Shown here: positions 53,235 to 63,714 of the stretch, piece after piece | Numbering within the stretch: the first letter of the stretch is position 1 | Layout of the letters: every line of letters begins with the position of its first letter | NCBI GenBank assembly: GCA_963801165.1 | Contig: CAWDDT010000009.1 | Coordinates: 32,001 to 96,000 of the forward strand | DNA length: 64,000 nucleotides | Direction of reading: 5' to 3' | Origin: an uncultured bacterium | GTDB lineage: Bacteria > Actinomycetota > Acidimicrobiia > Spongiisociales > UBA5794 | Program-made: the position numbers and the translations under genes | The notes under the pieces: generated by a model | Told to the model about the DNA's origin: nothing | Database searches by the model: none | What the model saw: the letters and a program-made list of their open reading frames with translations, nothing else

Positions 53235-54161
53235 ATGTCGATGGGTTTTGCATCCGAGGCAACGGGCTGGCTCATAGACGGCGATGCCTCCATCAGCTGG
53301 CAAACGATGCAGGACCTGCTCAATCGGGCACCCGCGACGGTGGCACGGGAGCGGGCCCGGGTTGCGACCACCGGCTGGGGAAAGCGGCTGTTGGAGAAGC
53401 AGGACGCGGAAGGTACCTGGGCGCATGGCGTCTACGGCCCGAAGTGGATCTCCACCACATACACGCTCTTGCTGTTGCGCCGGCTCGGTATACCGCCCAA
53501 CAGCCTTGACGGCAGGCGAGGCTGCCGGGCGCTGTGGGACCGGATCATCGTCGACGGAGGGGTCACCTGGGCGAACACGGCGGTGATGCCCGATGTCTGT
53601 GTGACGGCAATGTTTCTCGCTCTCGACTACTACTTCGACAACCGCGACCCGCGCCGCGAGGAAGCGCTGGCCTGGATGCTCGATCAACAGCTTCCCGACG
53701 GGGGCTGGAACTGCTCGGCGAGACGCTCCGGGTCGAGCCACGGGTCCTTTCATACGACGATCTCCGTGCTCGAGGCCCTCGCCGAGATCGGCGATCCTGC
53801 CAGTGACACAGCGGCCGGGCGGGGCCGCGAGTTCTTTCTCGGTCACCGGATGTACCGCTCACACCGCACGGGCGAGGTGTCGCACCCGTCCTTCACCAAG
53901 CTGTCGTTCCCGCCGCGCTGGTACTACGACGTGCTGCGTGGTCTCGACTACTTTCGCCTGGTCGACGCCCCCTACGACGAGCGGCTCGACGACGCTCTCG
54001 AGCTCCTCGTCACCAAGCGACGCAAGGACGGTAAGTGGCCCGTGCAGAACAAGCACCAGGGCCGGGTGTGGTTCGACATGGAGACGGGGCGCGAGCCCAG
54101 CCGCTGGAACACGTTGCGGGCGCTCCGCGTGCTCGACCGCTATCAGCCGAGCGCCCGGTGA
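53235..54161 (+). CDS. Prenyltransferase/squalene-cyclase-like repeat protein
   Basis: QDAEGTW, QLPDGGWNC, FPPRW.YD.LRGL, PSRWNTLRA. Confidence 0.8.
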   Translation: MSMGFASEATGWLIDGDASISWQTMQDLLNRAPATVARERARVATTGWGKRLLEKQDAEGTWAHGVYGPKWISTTYTLLLLRRLGIPPNSLDGRRGCRALWDRIIVDGGVTWANTAVMPDVCVTAMFLALDYYFDNRDPRREEALAWMLDQQLPDGGWNCSARRSGSSHGSFHTTISVLEALAEIGDPASDTAAGRGREFFLGHRMYRSHRTGEVSHPSFTKLSFPPRWYYDVLRGLDYFRLVDAPYDERLDDALELLVTKRRKDGKWPVQNKHQGRVWFDMETGREPSRWNTLRALRVLDRYQPSAR

Positions 54162-55921
54162 AGGAACGCCGCCATCTGGCCGCGGGTCACCGACTGTGTC
54201 GGGCAGAACCGGTCGTTGGCCGGCGGGTTGCAGCCCTTGGTGATCCCGGCGCCGGCCAGTAGCTCAATGCTCGTCTCGAAGACAGACCCGTTGTCGTCCA
54301 CGAATTGGGTACCGTCTGCGTCACCCGTGAGATCAAGCGCTCGCACCAGGAACGCCGCCATCTGGGCGCGGGTCACCGGGTCGGTGGGGCAGAAGTGGTC
54401 GTTGGCCGGCGGGTTGCAGCCTTTGGTGATCCCGTCCGCCGCCAGTGTGTTGATATTGGCGAAGTGGACCGAGGACCCCGTGTCGGTGAAGGGGTTGCTC
54501 GTCACCGCCGGCAGATCGAGTGCCCGAACCAGGAACGTGGCCATTTGTTCCCGGGTGACGACATCGTCCGGGCAGTACAGATCGTTGATCGGCGGGTTGC
54601 AGCCCTTGGTGATGCCCTGGTCGGCCAGCCAGCTGATGTCGTTCTCGAAGAGGTAGCCGGGCGGCACGTCCCGAAACCCGGAGGCGGGTAGATCATCTGT
54701 CGATCCGTACTCGTCAGCACCGATGTCGGCGGCTGCCCCGACCGGCCGATAGTTCCCATCGAAATCGTCGTCGACGAGCGTGACACCAGCGGCGGCGTCG
54801 ATGGCTCCGGTGGCCGCTGCGGTCAGGTGCAGATCGCCGCTCCCGAAAAACCAGCCGGCGGGCGCGTTGGTGACGTTGCCCTGGAGCGTCCCCGTGGCGC
54901 CGTCCCGCTGCCAGATCGGCCCATCGGTGAGATTGTTGGCGATCGTCGCCGTGGTCGATGAGAAGCGGTACTCGATGGTCCCCGACGGGAACGTGCCATT
55001 CTGGATGACCGTGTTGTGATAGATCGCGACGTCCCGTGCGTAGTTGACGGTGATGCCGATGTCGCCGGAGCCTTCCCGGTAGATCATGTTGTTGCGGATC
55101 TCACCGCCCTGGAAGTCATAGGTGCTCTCGCCGTCCCTGGAGTTGACGTCGGGCGCCGACAATCCGAGAGCGATGGACCGGTCGCACTCGATGAACAGGT
55201 TTCGTTCGACGACGGTGTTGATCGAGTTGCGCCACATCAGCACGGCCGGCCCGGCGAGCTGGCCCTCGGGAGCGCGAATGTTGCGGAACTCGTTGTCCCT
55301 GATGATCCACCCCGACCCGGCGAGCACGTCGACGCCGTTGGTGTAGTCGCTGCGAGCCCGGTCGGTGTACTCGAACAGAGAGCACTCGACGACGCCGTCG
55401 TCTGCATAGGGTCCCGGGTTGCCCGCCGTCGATCCCTTGACGAATTGCTCACCGGCGTCGACCAGGTGAAGGTTGTACAGATGCACTCCGTCGGCGTCAT
55501 CCTCCCCGTGGATCTGGATCAGGTGGTAGTAGGCGTCACGCAGCGTGAGGTCGGCGATCAGCACTTCCTTGGCGTCGTAGACCGCCATCACGTGTGGCAC
55601 GTTGCCGTAACTGGTGTTCGACATGCCCCGTCCGCGCAGGACGACCGCATCGCGGTTGCCGCTCGCCGAGCGGATTGTCACGTTGGATACGCCACGGATG
55701 TTGAGCGTGTTGGTCAGGTCGTAGGTGCCGTCTGCGATGAGGATGGTGGTGCCGGAGGTGAGGTTGTTCACCGCGTCCTGGAGATCGGCGGTGGTGGCGA
55801 CGGTCACCACGTTTCCCGTCGCCGATGACAGCGGGCCACACGCGGAAGCCGCCCCAGCTTGCGGCGAAGGGAAGGTGAAGAGGGCGGTGGCGACCAGGAT
55901 CAGTGGAAGGGATCGTTTCAT
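54143..55921 (-). CDS. Secreted parallel beta-helix protein with three C-terminal SLH domains
   Basis: Signal peptide, TI.IADGTY, Asn-ladder repeats, ADIGADE; 3 x (GITKGCNPP...FCP...VTR.QMA.FL.RAL). Confidence 0.88.
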   Translation of the reverse strand: MKRSLPLILVATALFTFPSPQAGAASACGPLSSATGNVVTVATTADLQDAVNNLTSGTTILIADGTYDLTNTLNIRGVSNVTIRSASGNRDAVVLRGRGMSNTSYGNVPHVMAVYDAKEVLIADLTLRDAYYHLIQIHGEDDADGVHLYNLHLVDAGEQFVKGSTAGNPGPYADDGVVECSLFEYTDRARSDYTNGVDVLAGSGWIIRDNEFRNIRAPEGQLAGPAVLMWRNSINTVVERNLFIECDRSIALGLSAPDVNSRDGESTYDFQGGEIRNNMIYREGSGDIGITVNYARDVAIYHNTVIQNGTFPSGTIEYRFSSTTATIANNLTDGPIWQRDGATGTLQGNVTNAPAGWFFGSGDLHLTAAATGAIDAAAGVTLVDDDFDGNYRPVGAAADIGADEYGSTDDLPASGFRDVPPGYLFENDISWLADQGITKGCNPPINDLYCPDDVVTREQMATFLVRALDLPAVTSNPFTDTGSSVHFANINTLAADGITKGCNPPANDHFCPTDPVTRAQMAAFLVRALDLTGDADGTQFVDDNGSVFETSIELLAGAGITKGCNPPANDRFCPTQSVTRGQMAAFLHRALG

Positions 55922-56014
55922 AGGCACATTCTGGCTTGGCCGGGTTTCCTACCGGAATCCGACGGCGTGTCCCGGTGCGACGCTCTACGATCCGCTCCGG
56001 TCTGCGAGGAGCCA

Positions 56015-58069
56015 ATGCCCGATTACCCGGTGACACGACGAGACGAGACGGTCGACGACTACCACGGCATGGCGGTTGCCGACCCTTACCGATGGCTGGA
56101 GGCGACTGACTCCGCCGAGACGCTCGCCTGGGTGGATGCGCAAAACGAGGTCACGTTCGCTCATCTCGATGCCATCCCGCAGCGGTCCGCGTTGCGGCAC
56201 CGGTTCGAGCAACTGTGGAACTTCCCACGGGAGTCGACGCCGATGCGCCGGGGAGACTGGTATTTCTTCACCCGGAACGACGGTCTGCAACCTCAGCCGA
56301 TCCTCTATAAACGTCCAGCGGCCGGCGGTGATCCGGTCGTCGTGCTCGACCCCAACACCATGTCCGACGACGGTACCGTCGCCCTGATGACTCTGTCGTT
56401 CACCAGCGACGGTGGGCTGCTGGCATATACCGTTGCCGAGGCAGGCAGCGACTGGCAGGTAGCCCGGGTGCTCGATACCGAGACCGGGGAGCACCTCCCC
56501 GACGAGCTGCAACGCATCAAGTTCACGACCCTGGCGTGGACCCCGGATGGGGAGGCGTTCTACTACGCCCGGTTCCCGGAGCCCGGCGAGTTCCCCGGCG
56601 CCTCGCCGTCGACCAACCAGCGTGTCCACCTTCACCGGCTCAGCGACGACCAGACCGAGGACGAACTCGTATACGCCCGTCCGGACGAACCGGACTTCGG
56701 CTTTCAACCCATTGTCACGGATGACGGTCGGCTGCTGGTGCTTCATGTCTGGCACGGAACCGACACGCGTAACCGCCTCTACTACCGGGAGGAGGGCGAC
56801 GGCGGGGTGTTTGTCGAGCTTCTCGACGACTTCGATGCCAAGTATCAACTCATTGATCACGTCGACGGGTGGCTCTACCTCCTGACCGACAGGGACGCAC
56901 CGAGGGGCAAGGTCATCGCCATCCCGCTCGCCCGGCCCACCGTCGAGAATTGGCGTGAGATCGTTCCTGAGGGAAAGGACACCATGGAGTTCGCCGCCGT
57001 CGCCGGCGGGCGGCTCGTCACCTTCGTGCTGCGTGACGCCAGCCACGCGGTCTCGGTCTACAGCCTCAACGGGGAGCCTGTCGCATCGCTTGATCTCCCT
57101 GCACTCGGCAGCGTCACCGAGTTTGCCGGAAAGCCCGGCCACAACGAGTTCTTCATCAGCTTCGAGTCGTTTGTCCTTCCCCCAACTGTGCTCCGTTACG
57201 ACCTGGTCGGCGGTTCGCTCGCTGCGGTCGCCGGGGCCGATGCCAGGATCGATCCCGATCGGTATGTCACGAAGCGGATTTGGGCGAGGTCGGCAGACGG
57301 CACCCCCATCCCGATGTTCGTCAGCCACCGCACAGATGTTGTTCTCGACGGCACCAACCCGACCATTCTGTTCGGCTACGGCGGTTTCGATATCTCCATG
57401 ACCCCGATGTACGCCCCCGATCGGCTCGGGTTCGTCGAAGCAGGCGGCGTCTTCGCCCTGGCCAACCTCCGGGGCGGCGGCGAGTATGGCAGGAAATGGC
57501 ATGAAGCGGGCATGTTCGGCGCCAAGCAGAATGTCTTCGACGACTGTATCGCTGCCGCCGAGCACCTGATCGCTTCCGGCTATACGTCAAACGAGCATCT
57601 CGGCATCTACGGTCGATCCAACGGTGGCCTGCTGGTGACGGCGTGTCTGGTGCAGCGGCCCGATCTGTTCGGCGCCGCGGTGGCGATGGTGCCGGTCACC
57701 GACATGCTCCGCTATCACCGTTTCACTGCCGGCCGCTATTGGACGGCGGAATGGGGCAGTGCCGACGACGGTCCTATGCAATTTGAATACCTGCATGCCT
57801 ATTCGCCGTTGCACAACGTGACTCCGGCGACCTATCCGCCGACGCTGGTCACCACCGGTGACACCGACGACAGGGTGGTGCCGCTTCACGCCTACAAGTT
57901 CATTGCCACGCTCCAGGCCGCCGTCGGCGGCTCCGGACCGGCCCTGCTTCGTGTCGATCGGCGCGCCGGTCACGGTCTCGGCAAGCCCATCTCGAAGCTC
58001 ATAGACGAGGCAGCCGACATCTACGCGTTTTTCCTCCACCACCTGGCAAAGGCGCCGGGGGCTAGTTAG
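56015..58069 (+). CDS. Prolyl oligopeptidase (S9A)
   Basis: DPYRWLE, GYGGF, GRSNGG (Ser), DDRV (Asp), AGHG (His). Confidence 0.95.
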   Translation: MPDYPVTRRDETVDDYHGMAVADPYRWLEATDSAETLAWVDAQNEVTFAHLDAIPQRSALRHRFEQLWNFPRESTPMRRGDWYFFTRNDGLQPQPILYKRPAAGGDPVVVLDPNTMSDDGTVALMTLSFTSDGGLLAYTVAEAGSDWQVARVLDTETGEHLPDELQRIKFTTLAWTPDGEAFYYARFPEPGEFPGASPSTNQRVHLHRLSDDQTEDELVYARPDEPDFGFQPIVTDDGRLLVLHVWHGTDTRNRLYYREEGDGGVFVELLDDFDAKYQLIDHVDGWLYLLTDRDAPRGKVIAIPLARPTVENWREIVPEGKDTMEFAAVAGGRLVTFVLRDASHAVSVYSLNGEPVASLDLPALGSVTEFAGKPGHNEFFISFESFVLPPTVLRYDLVGGSLAAVAGADARIDPDRYVTKRIWARSADGTPIPMFVSHRTDVVLDGTNPTILFGYGGFDISMTPMYAPDRLGFVEAGGVFALANLRGGGEYGRKWHEAGMFGAKQNVFDDCIAAAEHLIASGYTSNEHLGIYGRSNGGLLVTACLVQRPDLFGAAVAMVPVTDMLRYHRFTAGRYWTAEWGSADDGPMQFEYLHAYSPLHNVTPATYPPTLVTTGDTDDRVVPLHAYKFIATLQAAVGGSGPALLRVDRRAGHGLGKPISKLIDEAADIYAFFLHHLAKAPGAS

Positions 58070-58150
58070 CACGGAGCAGCGGAAGATGCCACCATATAGC
58101 CCCGGCCACCGGTTCAGCGGTGGCGAGTCCCTGTCGATGTGAGGGAGTAC

Positions 58151-59518
58151 ATGGCTCTGACCCGTGCCAATCAGTCGCGTGCCCTGTGGTGGACCATCGC
58201 CGGTGTTGTCGCCGTGGCTCTGCTTGCCCTGGGAGCGTTTCTGTTCGTCAACTCGTTCACGACGGGACGGGCGCTCGACAAGGCCGAGACGTTGCACCGG
58301 GCCGACCTCGCTCTTGCTGCTCAGGACGTGGCGATCAAGTCGATCGGGCAGCTCGTCCTCGTTTCCCAGGATGCCGCACTCCAGGTGGCGACCCCCGCCG
58401 ATGTCGAGGCCGCCGCAGGTGAGGCAGATCGAGCCGTTTCCGACCTTGGTGAGCGGTTCGAGGCCCTGGATTCCGGTCTGGTGGACAAGCTCACCCCCGC
58501 TTTCGACGCCTGGCAGGCGGCTGCCCTGGACGTGACCTCGGCGGCGTCGTCCGGCGTTCCGCAACAGGCAGCTGACGCGTTGACGGGATCCCTGGCGCAG
58601 GCTTCAGACCGCTTCGTCAACGAGCTCTCTATTGAGCGTGACTCCGCGGCTCAGGCTGTGTCTGACACCACCGATAGCGTGAGCTCTCTGACCCGCCTCG
58701 TTGGTTTTCTCACGCTTTTCCTCATTCCCCTGGTGGCGGTCTTCGTCTACTGGCTGATTGCCCGCCGCCAGCTCCGCGACGCTACGGCCCATCTCGATGC
58801 CCGCATTGAGGCAGAAAAGACGTTGGGCCGAGCCAAGGATCAGTTCATCGCCAACTTCTCGGAAGAGTTACGGACACCACTCACCTCGATCTACGGCTTC
58901 TCCGAGGTGCTTCTCGACAAGGGGTTCATCGACCCGCAGGCGGGTGATCTGGTCGGTCTGATCAACCAGGAGTCCGGCGAGCTGGCGCGTATGGTTGAAG
59001 ACCTGCTGGTGGCTGCCCACGATGAGAGCGCCCCGCTCCCAATCGGTCTCGAGACCCTCGACATGGATGAGCAGATCCGCGAAGTGATTGCGCCGTTCGA
59101 GAAGCGTGGGCGTGCCGTTGGTGGGACATGGGGTGGTGGTGCGGTGCGGGCCGACGCGCTCCGGGTAAGGCAGATCCTACGCAACCTCATCACCAACGCC
59201 ATCGAGCACGGTGGTCCCGACATCAGGATCTTCGGAGACGCGGCGGGCAGTAAGTATGTCGTGTCGGTGGAGGACAACGGGCCTGGTGTCCCCGAGGAGA
59301 TCGTCAATCAGTTGTTTGCCCGTTTTGTGAGCGGTGGGGAGCCTTTGACAACGGGAACACCCGGTCTGGGTCTTGCGGTGGCACGACTGCTGGCCCGGGC
59401 GATGGGTGGATCGCTCGAATATCAGCGAGTCGCCAACCGCACAGCGTTTGTCGTCTCCCTGCCGCTGGCGACGCAGGCCGACGACGATGCGGGCCCGGCT
59501 CCAGCGTCTGACCGATGA
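58151..59518 (+). CDS. Two-TM sensor histidine-kinase-like protein lacking the phosphoacceptor His
   Basis: H-box reads FSEELRTPL (TCG GAA GAG). N (NLITNA), G1 (DNGPG), F and G2 (GLGL) boxes are present. Confidence 0.9.
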   Translation: MALTRANQSRALWWTIAGVVAVALLALGAFLFVNSFTTGRALDKAETLHRADLALAAQDVAIKSIGQLVLVSQDAALQVATPADVEAAAGEADRAVSDLGERFEALDSGLVDKLTPAFDAWQAAALDVTSAASSGVPQQAADALTGSLAQASDRFVNELSIERDSAAQAVSDTTDSVSSLTRLVGFLTLFLIPLVAVFVYWLIARRQLRDATAHLDARIEAEKTLGRAKDQFIANFSEELRTPLTSIYGFSEVLLDKGFIDPQAGDLVGLINQESGELARMVEDLLVAAHDESAPLPIGLETLDMDEQIREVIAPFEKRGRAVGGTWGGGAVRADALRVRQILRNLITNAIEHGGPDIRIFGDAAGSKYVVSVEDNGPGVPEEIVNQLFARFVSGGEPLTTGTPGLGLAVARLLARAMGGSLEYQRVANRTAFVVSLPLATQADDDAGPAPASDR

Positions 59519-61758
59519 TGGCCGGTCTTCGTCGTATCGCGACTGCCTTTGCCGCAGCAGCCCTTGTGGCTGCGTTGCCCGGTGCCGCGGTAGCCGATTT
59601 CGGCAACGGTCCCTCGCTCGAGCCCATTCCGGATCAGACCGTTGCCGAGCTGAGCCAGATGCGGGTGACGGTCGAAGCAAGCGACCCCGATCTACCCAAT
59701 GACGTGCTCCGCTTCTCTCTGGCCGGAGGCCCGCTCGGTGCAGTCATGGCGCCGGGCGGAACCATCACGTGGACCCCTTCGGAGGCCAACGGTCCTGGTA
59801 CGTATACGATCGTCGCCCGCGTGGCGGATGCGTCGGGGCAGACCGACCAGGAGTCCTTTCAGGTGACGGTCACCGAGGTGAACACCGCACCCAAAATCGG
59901 ATCCATTCCGGATCAGGCGCTCGGACCGGGCGACGAGCTCGAGCTTGAAATCCCGGTTACCGATGTCGACCAGCCGGCCAACTCGTTCACGTTCGCGGCA
60001 ACCGGGCTTCCCCCGGGAACGAGCATCGACAGCACTACGGGGAAGATCAGCGGGACTGTGTCGAGCGTTGGGGACGCCACCTCGGGTACCGCCGTTATCA
60101 CCGTGACCGACGACGGCAACCCTCCCGCCCGGGCGACGCGTTCCTTCTCGTGGTTGGTAACGGCCGGCAACCATGCTCCGACCATGCAGCCGCTCGGCGA
60201 GCAAACGGTTCTCGAGGACGGTGTGGTCCGGTTCACGGTTTCTGCCCTGGACGCCGACCCGGGTGACGCGCTCATCTACTGGCTGGCAGAGGGTGTCGAC
60301 CCGGTGCCGGCCGGCGCCACGATCGACGAGAAGGGTGGGGTGTTCACCTGGAAACCGACGCAGGACCAGTACGGGGCTACCTACCGGTTCAACGTGATCG
60401 TGTCGGATTCGGGGTCGCCGCGACTATCCGATACCCAGCTGATCACGGTCGTCCTTCCTGAGTACAACACGCCCCCCGAGATCGGCGCCGTTTCCGACCA
60501 GCATTCGGCCGAGGGCGACAGCGTGCTGGTGAGAGTGACCGCAACCGACGTGGAACGCAACGCCCTCACCTTTTCGGCGGCGGACCTCCCTGCAGGGCTC
60601 GAGATCGATCCGGCCACAGGCGTGATCAGCGGCGAAGTCGGATACGAGGCCGGGGCGCGATCGCCGTATAGCGTCGTAGTGACGGTCACCGATGATGGGC
60701 GGCCTGCGGCGTCCAGTCACGCTTCGTTCAGCTGGGCGATCGACGAGACCAACCGGCCGCCGGTGGTCACGCCGGTGACGGTGGCGGCGATGGTGGGGAG
60801 AACGACACCTATCGAACTCGACGTATCCGACCCCGATGGCGACCCGCTCACGTTCACGATCGTCGACCAGCCGAGCAACGGCAGGCTCAGCGGAGTGCCG
60901 CCCACACTGACCTACCTGAGCGATGGGGGCACGAGCGACGCGTTCACCTTCACCGTCACCGACGGTGAGTTCGAGGTTGAGGGGACCGTGCTGATCGAGA
61001 TCAGAGAGAGCAATGCTCCGCCGGAGCCGGGTGTCGACGAGTACCAGCTGACGAGCGGCGAGACGCTTCAGGTCGACGCCCCCGGGGTGTTGGGCAATGA
61101 CCACGATCCCGACAGCGAGCAGCTGACCGCGGTGCTGGTGGCCCGACCCGACCACGGTGAGCTGACCCTAAACGCCGACGGTTCTTTCACCTATACCCCC
61201 GAAGCCGGCTACGTCGGGGCCGACAAGTTCACCTATGCCGCCGTCGACGAGCTCGGGGAGGAGTCGACGGCAACCGTCGTCCTGACCGTGGTGGCCGCAC
61301 AGACACCGGGCGAGGTCGAGCCCCCGGCAGGATCGCGGGCGGCGGTCGTTGCCGCCACTGCGGCGGCGTGGCGGCCGCCGGCCGAGGAGGACGGGGCTTT
61401 GCTCCCGCGGGTTGGCCGCGCCGTGACCGACGCCTTTCACAGTGGCGTTGCCGCGATTCCGCAGATCGCCTATCCGTTGTTGTTGCTGATCGCAGCACTG
61501 GTGCTGGCACTCACCGTCGGCAAGGTTTCGCTGCTGCCGGTGGGCAACGGGCGCACCCAGGGTGAAGGGACGGTGGACTGGTACGACCCGGCCCGCGGTT
61601 TCGGCCGCATCTTGTCCGATGACCGCGGTGACGAGGTCTTCGTCCACGCCGGCTCGTTCGAGAAGGGGGAGACCCCGGTACCGGGCCAGCGGGTCGAGTT
61701 CATCGCCGCCACCATCCGCGACCGCAAGATGGCCCTCAAAGCCTGGCAGGCGTCTTGA
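59515..61758 (+). CDS. Surface protein: signal peptide, six Ig/cadherin-like repeats, TM helix, C-terminal cold-shock domain
   Basis: Repeats start NGPS, NTAP, NHAP, NTPP, NRPP, NAPP with DxD motifs; TM IAYPLLLLIAALVLALTVG; then GTVDWYDPARGFGRI...EVFVH...GQRVEF. Confidence 0.88.
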   Translation: MMAGLRRIATAFAAAALVAALPGAAVADFGNGPSLEPIPDQTVAELSQMRVTVEASDPDLPNDVLRFSLAGGPLGAVMAPGGTITWTPSEANGPGTYTIVARVADASGQTDQESFQVTVTEVNTAPKIGSIPDQALGPGDELELEIPVTDVDQPANSFTFAATGLPPGTSIDSTTGKISGTVSSVGDATSGTAVITVTDDGNPPARATRSFSWLVTAGNHAPTMQPLGEQTVLEDGVVRFTVSALDADPGDALIYWLAEGVDPVPAGATIDEKGGVFTWKPTQDQYGATYRFNVIVSDSGSPRLSDTQLITVVLPEYNTPPEIGAVSDQHSAEGDSVLVRVTATDVERNALTFSAADLPAGLEIDPATGVISGEVGYEAGARSPYSVVVTVTDDGRPAASSHASFSWAIDETNRPPVVTPVTVAAMVGRTTPIELDVSDPDGDPLTFTIVDQPSNGRLSGVPPTLTYLSDGGTSDAFTFTVTDGEFEVEGTVLIEIRESNAPPEPGVDEYQLTSGETLQVDAPGVLGNDHDPDSEQLTAVLVARPDHGELTLNADGSFTYTPEAGYVGADKFTYAAVDELGEESTATVVLTVVAAQTPGEVEPPAGSRAAVVAATAAAWRPPAEEDGALLPRVGRAVTDAFHSGVAAIPQIAYPLLLLIAALVLALTVGKVSLLPVGNGRTQGEGTVDWYDPARGFGRILSDDRGDEVFVHAGSFEKGETPVPGQRVEFIAATIRDRKMALKAWQAS

Positions 61759-62944
61759 CCATTCCCAGCTGGTGGACATCGATCCTCCCGGTGCGGAACC
61801 CGGCCTCGCAGTACGCCAGGTAGTAGCGCCACGTTCGCCGGAACCGCTCGTCGAGGCCCAGGCTGCGCAATGCCGGCCAGGAGTTTTCGAAGCGCTCCCG
61901 CCAGGTACGCAGCGTCCGTGCGTATGAGGCGGCGAACGAGTCGACAGACCTGACGGTCAAACCTCGCTCTCCGGCGAGGTCGCGCAGCTTTTCCACCGAT
62001 GGGAGGGCGCCACCCGGGAAGATGTGCTTGCTGATGAAGTCGTCGCGGCCGAGCAGTGAGTCGAAGAGCCGGTTGTCGATGGTGATGGCCTGCATGGCGA
62101 CCGCCCCGTTGGGGCGGAGCCGGGCCTGGATCTGGTCGAACAGCGTGGGCCAGAGATCTGCGGGAATCGACTCGATCATCTCGATTGTCACGATCTTGTC
62201 ATACAGCCCCGTCTCATCGCGGAAGTCCTGGAGCCTGATTTCTGTCCGGTCGGCGACACCGGCCCTGGCGAGCCGTTCCCTGGCGTAGGTCGCCTGCTCA
62301 CCGCTGAGAGTGAGCCCGGTCACCGACGCGCCCATCTCGGTGGCCGCGTATTCCGCGAAGCCTCCCCAGCCGCAGCCGATCTCGAGCACTCGGTCGCCCG
62401 GCCCAACCCCGGCGAGCTCGGCGAGACGCTGGTACTTGGTCAACTGCCCCTGGGTGAGATCGTCGTCTTCCGACCGGAACACCGCCGATGAGTACGTCAT
62501 AGTGGAGTCGAGCCAGGCGGTGTAGAAGTCGTTGCCGAGGTCGTAGTGGTCGCCGATGCTGGGGATCTCGGAACGGCGCCGTACCGTCAATCGTTGCCAT
62601 AGCCGGCGGGCGGCTGTGATGACACGGCCGGGATTGCGGTCCCTCACACGGGCGTCGAGGTTCCTCGCCATCGCTTCCAGGGTCGCTGCCAGGTCGGGGG
62701 TGTCCCACAGACCGGCCATGTAGGCCTCGGCGAACCCGACGCCGCCGCCTGTGGCGAGCCGCCACAAGAACCGTATCGGACGGTAGACGGTGACGCGCCC
62801 GCTTGGCCCCGGCTCGGCGCCATGTCCTACCAGGATGGCCGAGCCGGGTAGTTCGACGGTGATCTCGCCGACTCGAATCCGTCGTAGCAGCGCTCCGTAG
62901 CCGGCTCGCACCGGTTTCATCGTGATCGACGCAAAGACGCTCAC
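61736..62944 (-). CDS. Cyclopropane-fatty-acyl-phospholipid synthase family methyltransferase
   Basis: HYDLGNDFY, MTYS, LEIGCGWG, IEMIE, IFPGG.LP, YYLAYCEAGF. Confidence 0.92.
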   Translation of the reverse strand: MSVFASITMKPVRAGYGALLRRIRVGEITVELPGSAILVGHGAEPGPSGRVTVYRPIRFLWRLATGGGVGFAEAYMAGLWDTPDLAATLEAMARNLDARVRDRNPGRVITAARRLWQRLTVRRRSEIPSIGDHYDLGNDFYTAWLDSTMTYSSAVFRSEDDDLTQGQLTKYQRLAELAGVGPGDRVLEIGCGWGGFAEYAATEMGASVTGLTLSGEQATYARERLARAGVADRTEIRLQDFRDETGLYDKIVTIEMIESIPADLWPTLFDQIQARLRPNGAVAMQAITIDNRLFDSLLGRDDFISKHIFPGGALPSVEKLRDLAGERGLTVRSVDSFAASYARTLRTWRERFENSWPALRSLGLDERFRRTWRYYLAYCEAGFRTGRIDVHQLGMVKTPARL

Positions 62945-63714
62945 GGCTGGGCCACCATGCTCTCGATCCGCACCGGTACCTGCGGTGGTTCCGGGACCCG
63001 GTGATACCGGCCGCCTTTCATCAGGATACGCAACGCATGCCAGTGGATGGCCGAGATCACCTTCAGTGTGAGCAAGGGGTGAGTGAAGAAGGCGGTGAGC
63101 AGGTTGCGGTCGGTGAATTCGTGCCGGGCCCCCACCATCGTTGCCGTTAGTCGATCTTCCGTTGGCGTGGTGTAGCCGATCGAGATCGAGAAGCGCTCCC
63201 CCGGGGGGCGGAGGGTGAACGTATAGCCACCCTCCCGGTCGAAGAACGGGGAGACGTGGAACTCCTTGCCGAAGCTGTGCCGGTGGGGTTCGCGTCCTTC
63301 GACCGGGATCAGGTGACTGTGGCTGTGCCCGAACGTGTTGTGGATCTCGTAGAGGACGGCGTCCAGGGAGCCGTCGGCATCGCGACAGAACCAGACCGTC
63401 AGGGGGTTGAACTGGTAGCCGAGCATGCGCGGATAGAGGAGTACTTCGATCCGCCCTCCGGGAAGATCTATACCGGCGAGTCGCAGCTGCTCGTGTATCC
63501 ACATTCGCATGCTGGTGCCGTCTCTGGCTCCGTGATCGCGATCGTGCACCGACAGGAGGTTCCAGCGGTTGTGGGAGAACCAGCGGCTGCCGTCGGCGAG
63601 CTCCTCGAGCTCGTCCAGGTCGACGAGCAACGAGAAGGTGCGGTAGGCCAGTTCGTGCCGGAACGGCGCCTTGCGGCGATGGGCGACCCGGCCGACAAAG
63701 ATGCCGCTATTCAT
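62941..63714 (-). CDS. DUF1365 family protein
   Basis: HRR..P..H, PR.LGY.FNP, EIHNTFG, K.FHVSPF, IHWHAL. Confidence 0.9.
   Translation of the reverse strand: MNSGIFVGRVAHRRKAPFRHELAYRTFSLLVDLDELEELADGSRWFSHNRWNLLSVHDRDHGARDGTSMRMWIHEQLRLAGIDLPGGRIEVLLYPRMLGYQFNPLTVWFCRDADGSLDAVLYEIHNTFGHSHSHLIPVEGREPHRHSFGKEFHVSPFFDREGGYTFTLRPPGERFSISIGYTTPTEDRLTATMVGARHEFTDRNLLTAFFTHPLLTLKVISAIHWHALRILMKGGRYHRVPEPPQVPVRIESMVAQP

Follow-up and report, generated by a model that had tools for sequence, protein, structure and literature searches.

The usual output of a two-component system is a response regulator that binds DNA, and in actinobacteria the MtrB-LpqB pair is a sensor kinase with an accessory protein encoded downstream. 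Here we describe two overlapping genes (positions 58151-61758) in a 64-kb stretch of the genome of an uncultured member of the Acidimicrobiia (C9:32001-96000, called the window hereafter for its whole length), which encode a sensor kinase without the phospho-acceptor His and an exported repeat protein ending in a cold-shock domain (CSD). The pair resembles classical HisKA kinases with a downstream accessory protein in having a kinase with two transmembrane (TM) segments, HisKA and HATPase_c domains and a coupled extracytoplasmic partner, a likeness that extends to those relatives of the pair that keep the His, some of them with a receiver gene. It departs from the MtrB-LpqB type in that the partner is a large protein of immunoglobulin (Ig)- and cadherin-like repeats with a CSD predicted to be cytoplasmic, in that the receivers linked to its relatives are mostly single-domain proteins with no DNA-binding output, and in that the window kinase itself has neither the His nor a linked receiver.

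Pseudo-histidine kinases are also known, such as DivL of Caulobacter, which acts on the receiver DivK. RocA of group A Streptococcus is described as a pseudo-histidine kinase acting on the kinase CovS (PMC7028121). The window kinase appears to be alike, since both are membrane proteins resembling histidine kinases without autophosphorylation at the canonical His, and it combines a histidine kinase fold with an acceptor that was lost and with signs of selection; however, RocA and DivL have defined targets, whereas the window kinase has a conserved ATP pocket and, as a constant companion, a CSD-tailed surface protein. The tail of this companion has the same fold as, and homologous sequence to, the CSDs of CspA, CspE, CspB and Y-box proteins, and keeps the W, F, F and H of their RNP-like motifs, but Csp are free 70-aa cytoplasmic proteins whereas this CSD forms the tethered terminus of an exported protein of 747 aa, with R and A in place of two aromatics. 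Proteins of the ToxR/CadC type and CSD-DUF1294 proteins use one or a few TM segments to keep a nucleic-acid-binding domain on the cytoplasmic side of the membrane, linked to a domain outside. The partner differs from ToxR/CadC in its opposite polarity (N-terminus out, C-terminus in), in having a CSD and not a winged helix, in its huge repeat ectodomain and in its obligatory kinase neighbour; in the text returned by the literature search, CSD-DUF1294 proteins appear only in passing mentions. Lastly, the partner shares exported tandem Big_9, He_PIG and cadherin-like repeats with large repeat adhesins (BapA/Bap/LapF, tandem-95), but it lacks the BapA/LapF C-terminus and an LPXTG motif and has a TM anchor and a CSD instead. 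The components are thus of known kinds (HisKA kinase, pseudo-histidine kinase, CSD and repeat adhesin), and the combination was not found in those parts of the literature that were covered: full-text searches, comprising result listings and the first lines of abstracts, returned no description of a kinase with a TM-anchored CSD partner.

Our preferred reading, to which we assign a probability of roughly one half, is that the pair consists of a pseudokinase, probably dead for phosphotransfer yet functional as a scaffold or through ATP binding, and of a membrane-tethered CSD protein, and that it would represent a derived form of a lineage-specific sensory module. A previous sequence-only reading of this DNA had pointed out the ATGA overlap, the His-less kinase and the adhesin-like protein with a CSD tail, and the open reading frames (ORFs), Pfam domains and H-box bore out all three. 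It was equally right in that no response regulator lies nearby, with no match to PF00072 in the 64-kb window; 54 such matches occur in the genome, the nearest at C9:142015, ~50 kb away.

The H-box of the window kinase reads SEELRTPL, where that of its relatives reads SHELRTPL, and the N box (RNLITNAIEHGG), G1 box (EDNGPGVP) and G2 box (GTPGLGLAV) were all located in the CA domain. As a sensor kinase of the HisKA class it has, therefore, the DHp and CA domains but not the acceptor His or a linked regulator. The same Glu is found at the His site in the metagenome contig L117 (97% identical) and in protein P0001 (96%), and the GAA codon is unchanged in contigs from run X1, perhaps the source sample itself, with zero differences over 58299-60809, and from run X7, with four differences, none at this codon. 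Given the agreement among these four sources, the Glu is genuine and not an assembly slip, and the kinase cannot use the canonical site, as the sequence-only reading held. The NCBIfam scan yielded no equivalog for the kinase (top model PnpS, 112 bits against a cut-off of 400), and the ~140-aa extracytoplasmic segment between both TM segments had no Pfam match. We chose the ATG as the start because homologues share this N-terminus (MALT...), beginning at the same point; a GAGGGAG box lies just before it.

Loss of the His is not private to the window. The ten closest homologues of the kinase (59-96% identity) all lack it, and in a FastTree phylogeny of 77 kinases the window belongs to a clade of 13 His-less rows with an SH-like support of 98 (14 rows and a support of 89 after adding the long-branch P0051, whose H-box is unreadable), sister to the His-bearing kinases of the L061 type. 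In an alignment of 50 His-bearing rows and 11 rows of the clade (A3), H238, E239 and T242 were each present in 50/50 of the former; in the clade, H was retained in 0/11 rows, E in 8/11 and T in 3/11, with E, E, N, R, T, T, Y, A, Q, Q and N at the His site, whereas S237, L240, R241, P243, L244 and I247 were each conserved in 11/11, and the N, G1 and G2 boxes were invariant. In HisKA proteins the kinase/phosphatase motif is H-E-x-x-T, so that the relaxation of these three residues among fixed neighbours points to a helix left intact but specifically deprived of its phosphoryl chemistry. We rejected the idea that the Glu was selected as a phosphomimic, for the residue at the His site varies freely within the clade.

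Both genes of the clade appear to be under purifying selection. Estimates of the ratio of nonsynonymous to synonymous substitutions (dN/dS; Nei-Gojobori), which are rough with dS near saturation, were 0.17-0.23 (kinase) and 0.19-0.26 (partner) within the clade, and 0.18-0.20 for pairs with His; within the kinase, the DHp and CA domains have changed least. Outside the main clade, at least four further isolated losses of the His occur among relatives of ~460 aa, none of them in rows with linked receivers. The cases are P0026, P0034, P0039, P0043 and P0045 (with Q, N, R, R and S, respectively), all single metagenome proteins in which errors are possible.

The partner protein carries tandem repeats that match Big_9 (149 bits), He_PIG (136 bits), Cadherin_4 and Cadherin_5, with DPDGD and NDHDPD motifs visible in the translation. 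It scored 102 bits with the NCBIfam tandem-95 repeat model (cut-off 90), but only 43 bits, below the cut-off of 180, with the BapA/LapF C-terminal model adhes_GNV_Cterm, and no LPXTG motif was found in it. The repeats are followed by the TM anchor, with a conserved juxtamembrane G-K/R-V/I-S/G-x-x-P, and by the CSD, which begins ~10 residues past the TM helix. A profile made from the alignment of 17 family tails spanning TM and CSD (A1) matched Csp chains in the PDB, with E-values of 7.3e-13 for CspE and 1.9e-12 for CspA, and AlphaFold2 modelled the same alignment as a TM helix leading into a barrel of five strands, with a mean predicted local distance difference test (pLDDT) value of 84 and of 88-96 in the barrel. 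In Foldseek, the top ranks for this model were the CSDs of CRHSP-24, CspA (TMt 0.87), YB-1 and Lin28. The tail is thus a true CSD homologue, as had been proposed from the sequence. We infer that this domain lies in the cytoplasm because the protein has a signal peptide, a single TM segment and a bias of K/R towards the C-terminal side of the latter, with more K/R in the 15 residues after the TM than in those before it in 17/17 family tails.

Aromatic surface motifs RNP1 (K-G-F-G-F-I) and RNP2 (V-F-V-H-F) characterize CSDs, and of six aromatic or His positions the window tail retains four (the Trp, F in GFG, and F and H in VFVH), more than other family tails. A search of a protein atlas with the tail gave no usable match. 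Two ideas on the tail were discarded. A role as a conserved phospho-acceptor does not fit A1, whose invariant columns are only P, L, G and R, none of the His, Asp, Ser, Thr or Tyr residues being fixed; and the Trp of the CSD is not a gain tied to the loss of His, because it also occurs in L163 and L165, which have His-bearing kinases and belong to other families. The features of both genes are collected below.

Table. Features of the kinase and partner genes (positions in the window).
Feature	Positions	Strand	Basis
His-less HisKA-type sensor (pseudo)kinase, 455 aa	58151..59518	+	ORF list; Pfam HisKA + HATPase_c; homologue N-termini
First in-frame start of the kinase (GTG) and preferred start (ATG)	58139 (GTG); 58151 (ATG)	+	
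Kinase TM1, residues ~11-38	58181..58264	+	Hydrophobicity scan
Kinase TM2, residues ~179-205	58685..58765	+	Hydrophobicity scan
HisKA (DHp) domain	58832..59017	+	Pfam PF00512, 49.5 bits (cut-off 26.9)
GAA (Glu) codon at the H-box phospho-acceptor His position	58862..58864	+	
HATPase_c (CA) domain	59153..59470	+	Pfam PF02518, 78.6 bits
ATGA start/stop overlap of kinase and partner genes	59515..59518	+	
Surface repeat protein, 747 aa, with C-terminal TM anchor and putative cytoplasmic CSD	59515..61758	+	ORF; Pfam
Signal-peptide-like N-terminus, residues 1-27 (...AAVA|DFG)	59515..59595	+	Hydrophobic stretch, residues 8-27; cleavage site deduced from the sequence
Tandem Ig-like/cadherin-like repeats (He_PIG, Big_9, Cadherin_4/5)	59596..61314	+	Pfam
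TM anchor, residues ~644-677	61444..61545	+	Hydrophobicity scan; alignment A1; AlphaFold2 helix
Cold-shock domain, residues 684-738 (GTVDWYD...RGFGRI...VFVHA)	61564..61728	+	Pfam CSD, 31.6 bits (cut-off 27)

A search for the gene pair across genomes, for which locus flanks were mapped with hidden Markov models (HMMs) built for this analysis and genes in relatives were called heuristically, showed that it is conserved: a kinase followed by a partner occurs in 25 loci (the window, L061-L077, L117-L121, L163 and L165) that span three families of a single order of Acidimicrobiia, often with several pairs per genome. The genome samples are partial, and the absences given below hold for the genomes searched. 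Among 101 genomes of the same family as the window, 58 have a close relative of the kinase and 13 have a long ORF ending in the TM and CSD tail, with a frame of at least 785 aa in 12 of them and a broken one in G077. With one locus taken per genome, 25 of the 30 best kinase loci were followed on the same strand by an ORF that starts like a signal peptide, which overlapped the kinase gene by exactly 4 nt in 18 cases and by 1-31 nt in five, and was separated from it by gaps of 73-85 nt in two; in the other five loci the flank was too short to call a partner. In the tree, the clades of kinases match the architectures of their partners, and one genome may hold two pairs.

Beyond the family, a sample of 401 genomes from the class, which takes in the unpublished genomes G361, G465, G302 and G342 (no module locus among them), contained full matches to the TM and CSD model in long ORFs only in the order of the window, namely in families f1 (G000, G014, G016 twice, and G004), f7 (G326 and G234) and f4 (G196 and G204); the remaining genomes had only Csp-sized matches to the CSD part. 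None of 400 other genomes sampled from the phylum reached an E-value of 1e-15 with this model. In a collection of 1.84 billion protein representatives, 38 of the best 150 matches covered nearly the whole model in one stretch at their C-terminus and the others among these 150 were proteins with multiple CSDs, and a word-indexed search retrieved 51 matches, of which 24 were Ig-repeat proteins with a TM and CSD tail, named generically at their source as 'cold shock domain-containing protein' or 'VCBS repeat-containing protein'. The kinase retrieved only six distant kinases, with 24-33% identity, from a collection of genome contigs. Within the genomes and literature covered, the module is specific to this lineage of uncultured actinobacteria and has no earlier description as a signalling system.

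The sequence-only reading also suggested a test of whether loss of the His co-varies with the fusion of the CSD. In 20 of the 25 pairs the kinase keeps the His and the partner still has a TM and a CSD, so the fusion does not co-vary with the loss of His; already in a first comparison, 16/16 relatives read SHELRTPL and had the TM and CSD tail. Orthologous kinases that retain the His, some of them with a regulator, had been named there as counting against the proposal, and they do exist among the relatives outside the clade. Nine of the 25 pairs adjoin a receiver gene, eight of them small and that of L077 coding for a 221-aa response regulator: it lies directly downstream on the same strand in L071-L074, is convergent in L075-L077, and there are two downstream in L163 and one upstream of the kinase in L165. 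The three module-linked receivers tested (3/3) contain a Response_reg domain only, and those of L071-L076 show 38-63% mutual identity. No receiver was found within up to 20 kb in loci with ~1000-aa partners (L061-L064, L066, L068-L070, L120/L121). The proposal of a phosphorelay-independent system is consequently compatible with the His-less clade, in which H, E and T are relaxed and the N, G1 and G2 boxes invariant, but not with the wider module, with its 9/25 pairs next to a receiver.

Partners of His-bearing kinases open, after the signal peptide, with a domain of ~195 residues (aligned in A4), here called the head. AlphaFold2 modelled it as a beta-sandwich (pLDDT 84.6), which Foldseek placed closest to carbohydrate-binding modules (CBM15, 22, 61 and 4), gingipain adhesin domains and MAM domains, with TM-scores of ~0.5-0.69; the head profile had no match against PDB sequences. 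The core of the head was matched in 18/20 partners of His-bearing kinases, with a partial match in L077, probably due to a start-calling problem, and none in L165. In contrast, it was matched in 0/5 partners of His-less kinases (the window, L117, L118, L119 and G077/L065), those of L119 and L065 matching only the flank at positions 163-204 of the model, and the head HMM found nothing in the window partner or anywhere else in the genome. Likewise, 5/5 His-less kinases with known context adjoin a partner of ~750 aa instead of ~1005 aa, and its alignment with the L061 partner starts near residue 289 of the latter. The window pair thus conforms to its own module in having a kinase and a TM and CSD partner, but not in the N-terminal head. 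The partners of L019, L021 and L023, of ~375 aa, consist of a head, a Thr/Pro-rich linker and a TM, without Ig repeats and without a CSD; because such CSD-less partners exist in some genera, the constant core of the module appears to be the kinase plus a tethered head-bearing protein. At the other extreme, the partner in L163 (G326:C39, 5946-14016) has 1698 aa, with N-terminal GDxGTILKTxDGGxSW-like repeats ahead of an internal head and a very canonical CSD (GTVAWYD...GFGYI...VFIHH), and it is followed by the two receiver genes.

From these comparisons, the ancestral module would have comprised a HisKA kinase with two TM segments, a translationally coupled surface protein with a CBM-like head, an Ig/cadherin-like stalk, a TM anchor and a cytoplasmic CSD, and often a small stand-alone receiver. 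The protein with the head and the stalk might sense something outside the cell, for instance a glycan or contact, and relay it to the kinase, which would then phosphorylate the small receiver, and the membrane CSD could be the target of this receiver or a separate output. In the clade of the window, the kinase has lost the catalytic H, E and T while keeping the dimerisation scaffold, the ATP pocket and the extracytoplasmic segment, and the partner has lost the head while keeping the stalk, the anchor and the CSD. The two proteins probably continue to work together as a complex at the membrane, with the pseudokinase serving the CSD protein as a scaffold or as a switch that binds ATP, and with no phosphorelay. 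Interaction of kinase and partner, ATP binding and nucleic-acid binding by the CSD are all predictions from sequence. For two copies of kinase residues 176-455 (A3) combined with the partner tail (A1), a complex prediction scored 0.00 without giving an answer, and weighs neither way. A more explicit version, in which the ectodomain senses a glycan or contact and communicates through its one TM with the tethered CSD, and kinase and receiver gate the binding of the CSD to RNA or single-stranded DNA (ssDNA) or its release, with the His-less clade as a gate based on ATP binding or scaffolding only, seems to us quite unlikely.

Several observations weigh against the preferred reading. Loss of the His and loss of the head in one clade amount to a single evolutionary event and not to a statistical association. 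His-bearing relatives imply that the module normally uses phosphotransfer, and there are candidate kinase and receiver partners elsewhere in the genome. The window CSD has Arg (GFG-R-I) and Ala (VFVH-A) at two aromatic positions of the CspA type, which we take to be contacts with the nucleic acid. In L065, from the closest genome relative (G077:C4, 7796-11434; Thr at the His site), moreover, the kinase is split between two frames and the partner is broken into three pieces or more. These frameshifts reflect either assembly indel errors or real decay; P0004 is an intact kinase near-identical to that of G077/L065.

The candidates elsewhere in the genome are what a pseudokinase of the RocA/DivL type would need, that is, one that binds or modulates a true kinase or a phosphorylated receiver encoded at a distance, with the surface protein as its input or cargo. 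A second kinase of the same family, C13:36938-38449, keeps the His and matches the HMM over its full length (E 4.5e-99), the single-domain receivers of the genome are 35-46% identical to module-linked receivers, with a 131-aa one at C13:121560-121955 that is 36-46% identical to 4/6 of them (L072, L074, L075 and L076), and no part of the pseudokinase is better conserved than the DHp. Nevertheless, the C13 kinase is only 33% identical to that of the window and its heterodimerisation would be hypothetical, the clade retains the strict 4-nt coupling to its own partner, and the decay of the phosphatase-type E and T would be of no help for handling a receiver; we consider this alternative unlikely, if worth keeping in view. 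It is improbable that the kinase is active on a non-canonical acceptor, be it H214, H290, a Ser/Thr/Tyr or the tail of the partner. Although the ATP-binding boxes are invariant, and H214 and H290 are present in 11/11 rows of the clade against 25/50 each in the His-bearing relatives, there is no gain of a clade-specific residue (only I219 and K318 differ consistently, both conservatively), the tail has no invariant phosphorylatable residue and the general-base Glu beside the His site is Gly in 3/11 rows of the clade.

A decaying relic, on its way to a pseudogene after losing the sensor head, the His and the regulator, would explain why the three losses coincide, the frameshifts in both G077 genes and the additional isolated losses of His among ~460-aa relatives, but reading frames are intact across the clade at 59-96% identity, dN/dS is ~0.2 for both genes, the motifs of the catalytic domain are invariant and the same allele occurs in several metagenomes, all of which make this explanation very improbable. 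Still less probable, in our view, is that an orphan kinase and an adhesin are simply independent neighbours, with the CSD serving the adhesin alone, for instance in its own biogenesis: such a view agrees with the CSD-less partners of ~375 aa in some genera, and it leaves unexplained why, in three families and after repeated co-duplication, the genes have stayed adjacent, in the same orientation and with start and stop overlapping.

If the pair is indeed a functional pseudokinase with a tethered CSD protein, the His-less clade might be taken as a natural separation-of-function experiment, where the parts needed without phosphotransfer would be the DHp scaffold, the ATP pocket, the stalk, the anchor and the CSD, and it may tie the lost head to the lost phosphotransfer. 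For the family as a whole, the pairing of a kinase with an exported CSD-tailed repeat protein and with receivers lacking an output suggests an undescribed output through RNA or ssDNA or through a protein scaffold.

The genes around the pair were also analysed. A prolyl oligopeptidase gene (Peptidase_S9_N + S9; 55859-58069, + strand, likely start near 56015) ends 81 nt upstream of the kinase, and the same-genus loci L061-L064 have a same-strand ORF of 680-750 aa upstream of the pair, compared by position and size only. We rejected the peptidase as a part of the module because the upstream ORF is restricted to same-genus loci and is missing in other genera. Further upstream, 54143-55927 (- strand) codes for a secreted protein of 594 aa with a right-handed beta-helix region and three C-terminal SLH-like repeats, which suggest an S-layer or cell-wall-anchored protein in an actinobacterium. 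Downstream, and convergent with the partner gene, 61736-63502 (- strand) codes for a methyltransferase of the CMAS type (cyclopropane/mycolic acid synthase-like), whose ORF end overlaps the 3' end of the partner gene by 23 nt. A scan of 55800-62200 for promoters and terminators gave no promoter-like sequence and one terminator-like sequence, inside the peptidase gene, no more than in shuffled sequences, and none of the sequencing runs listed for the stretch is of RNA. The stretch is carried by contigs from runs labelled as soil and salt-marsh metagenomes. In the region of the second kinase, C13:26000-38449, where neither a CSD tail nor a head domain was detected, the kinase lies upstream of ~10 kb of repeat-rich ORFs in at least six pieces, which resemble one giant surface protein.

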